Program-made: the position numbers
From: Candidatus Pacearchaeota archaeon
GTDB taxonomy: Archaea; Nanobdellota; Nanobdellia; Pacearchaeales; GW2011-AR1
Assembly (NCBI GenBank): GCA_038869755.1
Contig: JAWCQN010000005.1
Span: forward strand, 1 to 53,643
DNA length: 53,643 nt
Direction: 5' to 3'
In this document: positions 6,001 to 9,000 of the stretch, piece by piece
Layout: the number at the start of each line of letters is the position of its first letter
Position numbering within the stretch: the stretch's first letter is position 1

Positions 6001-9000
6001 AAAAAGAGGAGTGTTTTCAAATAATAAACTATTTGAACTAAAATGAGGAAGATAATTTATAATAATTTTGATAATAAATTTATATTTGGTATATATGTCA
6101 ATTAGATATTATTTTGATGATGGGCTGCAGAGAAAAGCAGAAGAAATATCTAAAAAGTTATTTCCTCACATAAATATAGAGAGAGTTAAATGTTTTAGGA
6201 GTGTAGGGAGTAGTTCGAGTAACACTATTGCAAGATGCCATACTATTGGAAAATTAATGCAGTTAACCATAGGTGTTAAAGCTCATTATGGTATAGAATT
6301 TATATCTGAAAATTTTGATAAACTATCTGATGAAGAAAAAACTAAGGTTATTATTCATGAATTAATGCATATTCCAAAGAGTTTTGGTGGAGGGTTTAAA
6401 CATCATGATTATGTATGCGACAAAAATATAAATATGTTTTATAATAAACTGAACAGTTTAAATATTAGGAATAATGAAAACAAAAAACTTAAGGATTTTT
6501 TCTGGCAGTGAGAGTATTGTGGTGAAAAATGTTAGAGAAGTTGAAGGAATTAATATCTTTAGAGGATTGATGTTTTCATCGAAGGACAATTCAAATGCTT
6601 TATTATTCAATATTAAATCCGGTTTACATAGTCTTTTTGTTTTTTATGATTTTTTGGTTTTATGGCTTGATTATAAAAATAAGATTGTTGATTTTAGAAT
6701 TGTTAAACCATTTAGATTTTATATAAATACAGATAAGGAATATTCTAAAATACTGGAAGTTCCAATTTCCCGACGATATTCAGGGATTGCTAATTTTATC
6801 GTCGGGGAAAAGTTTAAAAACCGGTTTATCTTATTATGATTAACAATTAATAAAAGGAGGTTTATATGGGAACTGTTCTTATAAAAAATGCCGTCAAGAG
6901 AAAGCCAGGTTACCTTTACTATGTTGATGGAAAGGGAAATGTCTGTGAAGCAAAAATGGCCCGTGGCGGAAAAAAGAAAGCTAAAAAGAAAAAAAGATAA
7001 ATTCTAATATTTTTATTTTTCCTATTTCTATTTTTAATTTATTCGTTAATGTTATAAACCAATGATTTTACCTTATATGTACTTATGAAAATAAAGATTA
7101 TGTGCTTAATATAAGGTTATCTTAAACAGATTTATCTTAAAAAGTTAAGATTGAAATAAAATGATACTTGGAATTGAATCAACAGCTCACACTTTTGGAA
7201 TCGGTATAGTCCATAATGAAAAAATATTGGCAAATGTTAAAGACTCGTATACCACTGAGAAAGGAGGGATTATTCCTGTTGATGCTGCAAAACATCATAA
7301 GGAAGTTGCAGAAAAAATTTTAAGCAAAGCTTTGGTTGATTCTGGTATCGGTTTGGAAGATATAGATGCAATTGCACTCTCCCAAGGGCCCGGATTATCT
7401 CCATGCCTGTTAGCTGGAAAAGATTTTGCCAAGAAAATAGCTAAAGAACTAAATGTTCCTCTGGTTCCTGTTAATCATTGCATAGCACATCAGGAGATTG
7501 GAAGGATTACTGGTGCAAAGGATGCTGTAATGTTGTATGCTTCTGGAGCCAATACACAGATAATTGCTTATGCTTCCGGAAAATATAGGGTTTTCGGAGA
7601 AACTTTGGATTTGGGAGTTGGGAATTTTATTGATACCTTTGCCCGCCATATAGGTTTGGGGTTTCCCGGAGGCCCTAAAATAGCAAAAATTGTTGAAGAA
7701 GCTAAAAAGCCTAAATATATAGAATTACCTTATAGTATTAAAGGGATGGATGTAAGTTTTTCCGGTTTGCAGACTAAATTAAGTCATCTTTATAATTCAA
7801 AAAAGCATTCAATTGAGGATTTATCTTATAGCATGCAGGAAAGTGTTTTTTCTATGTTAATAGAGGCAAGTGAAAGAGCTCTTGCACATACTGGAAAAAA
7901 AGAGTTGGTTTTGGCAGGAGGAGTTGCATGTAATAAAAGACTTCAGGAAATGGCAAGAATTATGTGTGAAGAGAGAAATTGTAAAATGTTTGTTCCTGAA
8001 AATTCACTTCTTGTTGATAATGGAGCCATGATCGCTTTTACCGGGGAAATTATGTATAAGTCAGGAATTTTGATAAAGCCCGGAACTAAGGAGTTTGATG
8101 AGTTAGACATAAAGCCGAAGCAGAGGACTGATGAAGTTGAAGTCAAGTGGAGATAAGATTTATAAACCCATTTTATAATTAGATTATAACCTATGAAGTA
8201 AATCTTCATTTAAAATAGATTACGGAGGTCCGCATGGATTTCTATTCAATTGTTGAAAAGGCGAGAAAAACAGGAAAAATTGAAAAAGGAACTAATGAAG
8301 TAACCAAAGCTATTGAGAGAGGTACTGCCAAGCTGGTTGTAGCTGCCAAAGATGTAGATCCGAAGGAGATTACTCATCATCTTAGCATTTTATGTAAGGA
8401 GAAAGGCATAAAGTTCGGAGAGGTTGATAGCAAACAAAAGCTTGGAATCTCGGCAGGAATAAAAGTAGCATGTAGTTCAATAGCTATAATTCAGCCCGGT
8501 GATGCCGAGAAAGATGTAAGCAATTTAAAGTAATCTGTTTATACAAAATATTAAAATGAAGGAAAGTATAGGAAAAGCGGCAAGAGAATTAACTAATGGA
8601 AATAAGATGTTAGATAATGGAAGAGAGTCGTGCCCTTTCTATTATCCGGATTTGAGATGTAATGCAGGGATTTTTTCAAATTGCATCCATATTGAAGGAG
8701 AAGAGTATCATTCATGTATGATTTATCAAAATTCTGTTAATAATAGGGTATAGAATGGCTCAGCAAAAACCACAGCAACAGCAGAAAAAAGAAAAATTAA
8801 GTATTAGTGAGGAAGCTGTTCCGGCTGTTGTTGAGGCGATAATGGGGAGAACAGGTTTCAGGGGAGAGGTTACTCAGGTTAGGGTTAAAATATTGGGTGG
8901 AAGAAATTCTGGAAGAACAATGAGAAGAAATGTTAAAGGGCCGGTAAGAGTTAATGATATTTTAATGTTGAGAGAGACTGAAATTGAAGCAAGAAGAATA

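Follow-up and report, generated by a model that had tools for sequence, protein, structure and literature searches.

Absence of the box C/D sRNP core from most Pacearchaeales genomes searched, and a compact nop5-sRNA-fibrillarin cassette with a single-motif RNA in a minority

The window, i.e., the whole stretch of 53,643 nucleotides that was analyzed, carries on its forward strand a gene cluster in the order kae1-L7Ae-S28e-L24e. The KEOPS gene kae1 (7161..8156; TIGR03722 over cut-off) is the upstream neighbor of the L7Ae/eL8 gene (8234..8533), which is followed by the genes for ribosomal proteins S28e (8755..9033; NF003080 over cut-off) and L24e (9312..9509; NF034186, E=2.5e-18). The 99-aa L7Ae product matched TIGR03677 with E=1e-34 and 119 bits, below the curated cut-off of 134.6, and this match, beside S28e and L24e, agrees with the genome-wide survey's note, which had described the gene as a retained L7Ae. 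The protein is 63–74% identical to the L7Ae of eight other members of the order, alike in genomes that retain Nop5 (hereafter keepers) and in those without it (non-keepers), and no keeper-specific signature was detected among 12 sequences. It is an ordinary L7Ae and the sole box C/D core protein remaining in this genome (G000). L7Ae keeps its ribosomal and RNase P roles and is therefore uninformative on box C/D function; its retention here is explained by the ribosome and by the RNase P RNA, which is present at positions 15966-16293 of contig C2.

In Euryarchaeota, a box C/D guide is encoded in the intron of tRNA-Trp. The tRNA-Trp(CCA) gene of the window (40294..40364, forward strand) has no intron, so this genome lacks an intron-encoded box C/D guide, and a tRNA-Trp pattern scan gave no match. 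The window also contains an intron-containing tRNA at 19505-19606, called Pyl by ARAGORN and scoring 44.6 bits with Rfam, and a tRNA-Tyr with a 113-nt intron at 1093-1278.

The same note had reported fibrillarin and Nop5 to be missing from this genome, a bin of 627 kb in 20 contigs that is 93% complete, and our searches agreed. PF01798 (Nop) gave no match at E≤1, and PF01269 (fibrillarin) a single one (E=0.005) on SAM motif I of a 215-aa class I methyltransferase encoded at 49267..49914 on the forward strand, head to head with Elp3 (47791-49215). This protein was rejected as a fibrillarin, as the match covers motif I only and the profile of keeper fibrillarins scored it at E=4.4; we take it to resemble the Trm9/ALKBH8 wobble-uridine methyltransferases, a likeness that does not amount to a family assignment. 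Fibrillarin and Nop5 profiles trained on the order found nothing in the six reading frames (best E 0.35 and 0.17, respectively). EF-2 is also missing from the assembly, so this bin alone proves little and the case rests on the order.

Among 151 genomes of the order at least 85% complete, Nop5 was found over cut-off in five and full-length fibrillarin in the same five, and the control Cbf5 in 143. Since the keeper proteins are highly divergent, we also trained profiles on them; with these, Nop5 was detected in 15 of 401 genomes at least 70% complete, the scores being bimodal (E<1e-82 in all 15, and no genuine match at intermediate values), and fibrillarin, looked at in these 15 keepers, was positive in all. 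Such counts come from genome samples, where absence means not found in the genomes searched. The proportions agree with the survey's statement, made on other samples, that both proteins are absent in nearly all Pacearchaeales, and equally with its caveat that a few members keep Nop5. Fibrillarin scored over cut-off in 21 genomes of the order, and in 16 of them the match covers only the part of the model around motif I; these were set aside as generic methyltransferases (13 of the 16 tested with the keeper profile, none scoring), and weak Nop5 matches in G439 and G489 were rejected because they lie over unrelated ORFs.

It could be argued that the genes were dropped from the bins or have diverged past detection: all genomes are bins, G000 lacks even EF-2, the known keeper proteins have already drifted far, and in genus g3 the genes adjoin the rRNA operon, a frequent assembly breakpoint. 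We consider this highly improbable, given the 143 genomes with Cbf5 against the five with Nop5, the lack of intermediate scores with lineage-trained profiles and the lack of Nop5 in the single-contig genomes G105, G033, and G035; moreover, the rRNA operon of G000 lies inside contig C2 with unrelated genes downstream, and the small RNA described below vanishes together with the proteins. That most of the order is without the box C/D core is thus supported, and it holds against the controls for incompleteness and divergence.

Approximately 4% of the order keep a cassette composed of nop5, a small RNA and fibrillarin. The survey's claim that RNA-guided 2′-O-methylation is gone from the order therefore stood for the majority, which has lost the core, but not for this minority. 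The keepers are scattered over several genera and two families, which is not simply explained by one ancestral loss. Their nop5 and fibrillarin genes are adjacent in all but G099 and encode proteins of about 220 aa and about 180–205 aa, respectively. In genera g3 and g259, RNase P RNA and tRNA-Phe adjoin the cassette, and in G036 it follows the 23S gene a short way downstream (L188, L191, L195). In this last genome (L052:2230-3516) a single open frame of 429 codons runs through nop5 and fibrillarin and takes in the RNA as a linker, by either a true fusion or a lost stop. One record titled as a Patescibacteria bin (L042) carries a cassette of the Pacearchaeales type, by misbinning or transfer.

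Directly after nop5, at all 17 keeper loci, lies a box C/D RNA of approximately 40 nt, which overlaps the end of nop5 and is inverted, on the opposite strand, at L037 and L041. Its layout comprises a stem, box C, 13–21 nt, box D and the closing stem, that is, one C/D motif; C′/D′ boxes and a second guide are not present within the 13–21 nt between the boxes. Boxes C and D conform to the consensus and show no variation in any of the 26 rows, which were in part selected for this, and the terminal stem is paired in 90% of cells with two-sided changes in six of seven pairs (0 of 500 shuffles). A pattern for this RNA matched 15 of 15 keepers, once per genome, a count that is circular because the pattern was built from keepers, and one of 386 non-keepers, with none in the backwards control; that single non-keeper match lies inside a coding frame. 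The pattern and covariance-model matches in G146 fall within coding frames and were rejected. In metagenomes, the pattern gave 28 matches, all sharing the guide 8-mer by construction; the stem, together with a neighboring nop5 or fibrillarin, accompanies 21 of them, and the other seven lack such a neighbor. No Rfam sRNA family matched the RNA at the eight loci searched.

With the covariance model, a single copy was detected in G036, whereas G007, G012, G105, G174, and a 400-kb stretch of G228 gave none, nor did G000 at E≤1 (150 of 258 candidates scored). In G000 the strict dual-box scan, the mini scan and the pattern each returned 0, and in G036 the small RNA was the only candidate, the dual-box scan returning 0. 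The same scan gave seven matches in the 400 kb of G228 and one in G174; given its strictness, it may have overlooked additional guides in keepers. The output of a loose C/D scan was noise and was discarded. Beside nop5 or fibrillarin, no such small RNA was found at 16 loci of other families, in G174 or in the 400 kb of G228. This candidate natural archaeal C/D RNA with a single motif and no C′/D′ boxes is new here.

Upstream of box D, the RNA is complementary to the peptidyl-transferase loop of the same keeper's 23S rRNA, at 2496-2508 in E. coli numbers. A duplex of 8–11 nt starting from box D, with G-U as the first pair, was found in all 12 keepers with a recovered 23S (it was not recovered for five of the 17 loci). 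C/D guides usually pair over 10–12 nt, and the keeper pairing, often of 8 nt, is under this length. With shuffled guides, some rRNA site was found in 8% of trials, and 2488-2508 in 0.065%. An earlier guess, helix 44 of 16S rRNA, fits some g3 guides and not those of G004, G147, and G566, and was dropped in favor of 23S. Positions were verified against the E. coli line given in the supplement of PMC4644070. By the N+5 rule, as given in the passages available from PMC6009581, the 13 of 17 RNAs that pair from 2496 would direct methylation to U2500, and the four that pair from 2500 to position 2504, so that the two guide types predict different sites. A compensatory change accompanies the latter, with G at −5 facing C2504 in G004 and A at −5 facing U2504 in G566. 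Both guide types place a G opposite C2503, an unusual base of the order. Being kin, the keepers are not independent cases: they represent no more than two guide types, with a single compensatory change. The 23S target is intact in non-keepers, G000 included.

As a separate observation on this region, A2503 of 23S is replaced by C in 29 of 30 genomes of the order with a match (family f6 keeps A) and in none of 13 outside it (L208-L236; G000 is L215, C2:28025-28043), and families f2, f4, and f5 also carry C2504. A literature search on C2503 surfaced only antibiotic papers.

The RNA might also act other than as a site-specific guide: it could help the peptidyl-transferase loop to fold, as a chaperone, or form a kink-turn that binds L7Ae and controls nop5-fibrillarin expression, any methylation being loose. 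In line with this, the N+5 site moves by four bases although the region that pairs is conserved; another element, located after box C, can pair over 7–9 nt with approximately 2540-2549 in genus g3 and poorly elsewhere, and PMC4644070 proposes a chaperone role for sRNAs that connect sites lying far apart. In vitro, RNPs with a single motif lacked specificity (PMC1635284), and the overlap with the end of nop5 would suit a control element. The inverted RNA at L037 and L041, however, is not always part of the mRNA, the sole compensatory change falls exactly on N+5, and the K, D, K, and H of keeper fibrillarin, which we take to be the catalytic residues, are invariant in 24 of 24 rows. We therefore regard these non-guide roles as decidedly unlikely and a guide function as the preferred reading.

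The keeper proteins were then considered as parts of such an enzyme. Keeper Nop5 has a Nop domain (PF01798, E about 1e-25), and its top fold matches are box C/D RNPs; keeper fibrillarin has the methyltransferase core. In an AlphaFold2 model of keeper Nop5 (pLDDT 91) both coiled-coil helices are broken, with an rmsd of 15.8 Å to 3PLA, whereas an ordinary short Nop5 of Nanobdellota folded in the same way as a control gave continuous helices of 33 and 35 residues and 3.0 Å to 3PLA. The continuous dimerization coiled coil is thus predicted to be missing, being broken and folded back, in what is a single-chain model from 24 sequences, and the keeper enzyme is probably monomeric. Nop5 and fibrillarin are predicted to bind each other through Nop5 residues 1–20, with a complex score of 0.91 against 0.01 for the best control, a value that may show likeness only since like complexes have been solved; the runs agree in at least 96% of contacts, partner pLDDT is at least 89, and the mark set for the score is reached by 116 of 157 solved and two of 215 mismatched pairs. 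The idea that keeper Nop5 had lost fibrillarin binding was dropped: a short Nop5 also occurs in eight of 23 other Nanobdellota, and the retained helix carries the predicted interface.

The 23S domain V is a known hotspot of methylation guides. In comparison with the box C/D sRNP of archaea (PDB 3PLA; parts of PMC7994747 and PMC4644070), the keepers are alike in the three proteins L7Ae, Nop5, and fibrillarin, in consensus boxes C and D in kink-turn register, in the terminal stem and in a guide to 23S domain V. They differ in that the usual RNA has two guides of 10–12 nt and a K-loop, in that the keeper RNA is encoded between the protein genes, and in the Nop5 of about 220 aa with its coiled coil predicted to be broken and the fibrillarin of about 180 aa; approximately 96% of the order has no part of the system. 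The synthetic hemi-RNP of Hardin and Batey (2006; PMC1635284, in the portion consulted) has, like the keeper RNA, a single C/D motif and a single guide. That complex was engineered and, active as it was, non-specific, the same text stating that the two-motif layout is absolutely conserved in natural complexes, whereas the keeper RNA is natural, conserved and covaries with its target. TIGR-Tas likewise combines a Nop-domain protein with an adjacent, very short RNA of box C/D type, but, in what was available of PMC12045711, its RNAs are arrayed, with tandem spacers and a DNA target, and its protein is dimeric, while keepers have one RNA, an rRNA target and fibrillarin. No TIGR-Tas-like RNA array was found beside keeper nop5, with one copy in G036 and one pattern match per keeper genome. 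Nanoarchaeum equitans, of the same phylum and with a reduced genome, keeps as many as 26 box C/D sRNAs (PMC7994747, PMC3491384); a reduced genome is therefore not enough by itself to bring about the loss.

A cassette tree was built by FastTree. Keeper proteins form one clade on a long stem of 1.11 substitutions per site. Lateral spread would mean one loss near the base of the order, after which the compact cassette moved among relatives, with its own guide, as an accessory module. Its distribution within genera is indeed patchy (7 of 35 genomes in g3, 1 of 9 in g2 and 1 of 15 in g16, among strong matches), the flanks vary, with tRNA-Phe just downstream at seven of 17 loci, an apparently integrase-like fragment, as we read it, follows fibrillarin in L046, one copy sits in the Patescibacteria-titled bin, and parsimony prefers gains in the g2+g16 clade, where two keepers stand among five non-keepers and four losses or two gains are needed. 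Against this, the cassette tree recovers both g3 and g259 as monophyletic groups, related keepers have neighbors in common, no closer donor turned up among 27 loci drawn from all GTDB species, the stem is long, and other Nanobdellota families follow the same trend of shrinking and then losing the system. Of its 12 splits, the cassette tree has five in common with EF-2, where shuffling gave a mean of 0.31 and a maximum of 4, and seven disagree. EF-2 itself (L118-L146) comes in two types that split g3 and g259, which suggests replacement or paralogy. Repeated loss is favored, and lateral spread, the main rival, appears unlikely.

Box C/D core loss is not special to Pacearchaeales. Nop5 was found in 149 of 201 genomes of a phylum sample, which is 149 of the 196 outside this family, and of the 47 of these without it, 45 are also without fibrillarin. 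These 45, all at least 90% complete, bear out a caveat of the survey, namely that some other Nanobdellota families lack Nop5 too; they cluster in families f10, f29, f30, f36, f46, and f47, and two are single-contig. In families f30, f20, f53, and f70 (L345-L348, L354, L238) Nop5 has shrunk independently to approximately 170–200 aa and fibrillarin to approximately 170–190 aa, with no adjacent small RNA. The literature search turned up no account of this loss and none of a natural archaeal C/D RNA with a single motif, and large gene tables or subscription papers may show the absence unremarked. Neither fibrillarin nor Nop5 is mentioned in the part consulted of bioRxiv 10.64898/2026.05.13.725050, on 208 complete Nanobdellota genomes, and three small supplement files of PMC7414124 gave no match, its large gene tables being a place where the absence may stand unremarked.

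The stand-alone bacterial enzymes RlmM, RlmE and the SpoU family, and Trm56 of archaea, need no guide and could, like the lost system, provide ribose methyls. As a general replacement none was found: Trm56 and RlmE each occur in 0 of 121 genomes of the order, and SpoU scored over cut-off in one of five genomes. Seven FtsJ-profile matches came from five genomes, and the three of them that were examined proved to be other methyltransferases. What was found comprises an RlmM-like methyltransferase of 346 aa, below cut-off, in the non-keeper G045 (L239:1324-2361) and two bacterial-type SpoU proteins close together in the non-keeper G012 (L113:1492-1983, L116:1480-1953). RlmM acts at C2498, a site that adjoins the 23S target of the small guide.

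The survey had also stated that Cbf5 and a Nop10-like ORF are kept. Cbf5 is indeed retained, as the control count indicates, and the Nop10-like ORF is real, but Nop10 is truncated: in three of five genomes it is cut to a zinc ribbon of 39–48 aa that covers model positions 2–31 of 52. Gar1 was found in 0 of five genomes, and together with the cut Nop10 this means that retention of Cbf5 does not show H/ACA guiding to be kept. At two or more of the three Nop10 loci (L240-L242), the gene is still found downstream of one resembling aIF2-alpha. In genus g6, Cbf5 was found in only one of six genomes, a possible further loss, and in family f4 its matches mostly stop near model position 212, before the PUA region.

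From the observed gene absence, the cassette, the RNA boxes with their covarying stem and the complementarity to the keepers' own rRNA, we arrive at the following explanation, to which we give a probability of roughly 60%: most Pacearchaeales searched are without fibrillarin and Nop5, likely by repeated loss of an already shrunken system, and approximately 4% keep a cassette whose one-motif RNA is predicted to guide one ribose methylation in 23S rRNA. In the proposed mechanism, L7Ae would bind the single C/D kink-turn and one Nop5, its dimer coiled coil broken and folded back in the model, would dock on the L7Ae-RNA complex and hold fibrillarin via its first helix. Pairing of the 8–11 nt upstream of box D with 23S 2496-2508 would then put the methyl group on U2500 (13 of 17) or on 2504 (4 of 17). 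With a single target left, the cassette may have become dispensable and been lost as a unit. Non-keepers such as G000 would have no guided ribose methylation and mostly neither Trm56 nor RlmE; L7Ae would be kept for the ribosome, as eL8, and for RNase P, as a subunit, while Cbf5 would likely serve as a guide-free tRNA pseudouridine synthase.

A further-reaching version, which we advance tentatively and rate at somewhat less than even odds, is that most Pacearchaeales are without any ribose methylation of ribosomes and tRNAs, and that keepers hold a natural half-size enzyme, in which single copies of a folded-back Nop5, of fibrillarin and of L7Ae join a single-motif RNA of 40 nt, and which would methylate one exact base of the peptidyl-transferase loop and so go beyond the engineered single-motif complexes.

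These results bear on a trait that is viewed as shared by archaea and eukaryotes. Fibrillarin is listed in over 90% of archaea in the passages available from PMC8481954, with only two DPANN representatives there, and both genes (COG1889 and COG1498) serve as archaeal completeness markers in those of PMC9258230. RNA-guided ribose methylation appears to be dispensable across hundreds of genomes and several families, and its loss biases completeness scores. The keepers would show how a guide system ends, with a single target in the catalytic center. Their remnant allows an old question, raised in PMC1635284, to be tested directly, namely whether site specificity requires the dimeric layout with two motifs; among scaffolds for a programmable RNA methyltransferase, it could be the smallest.
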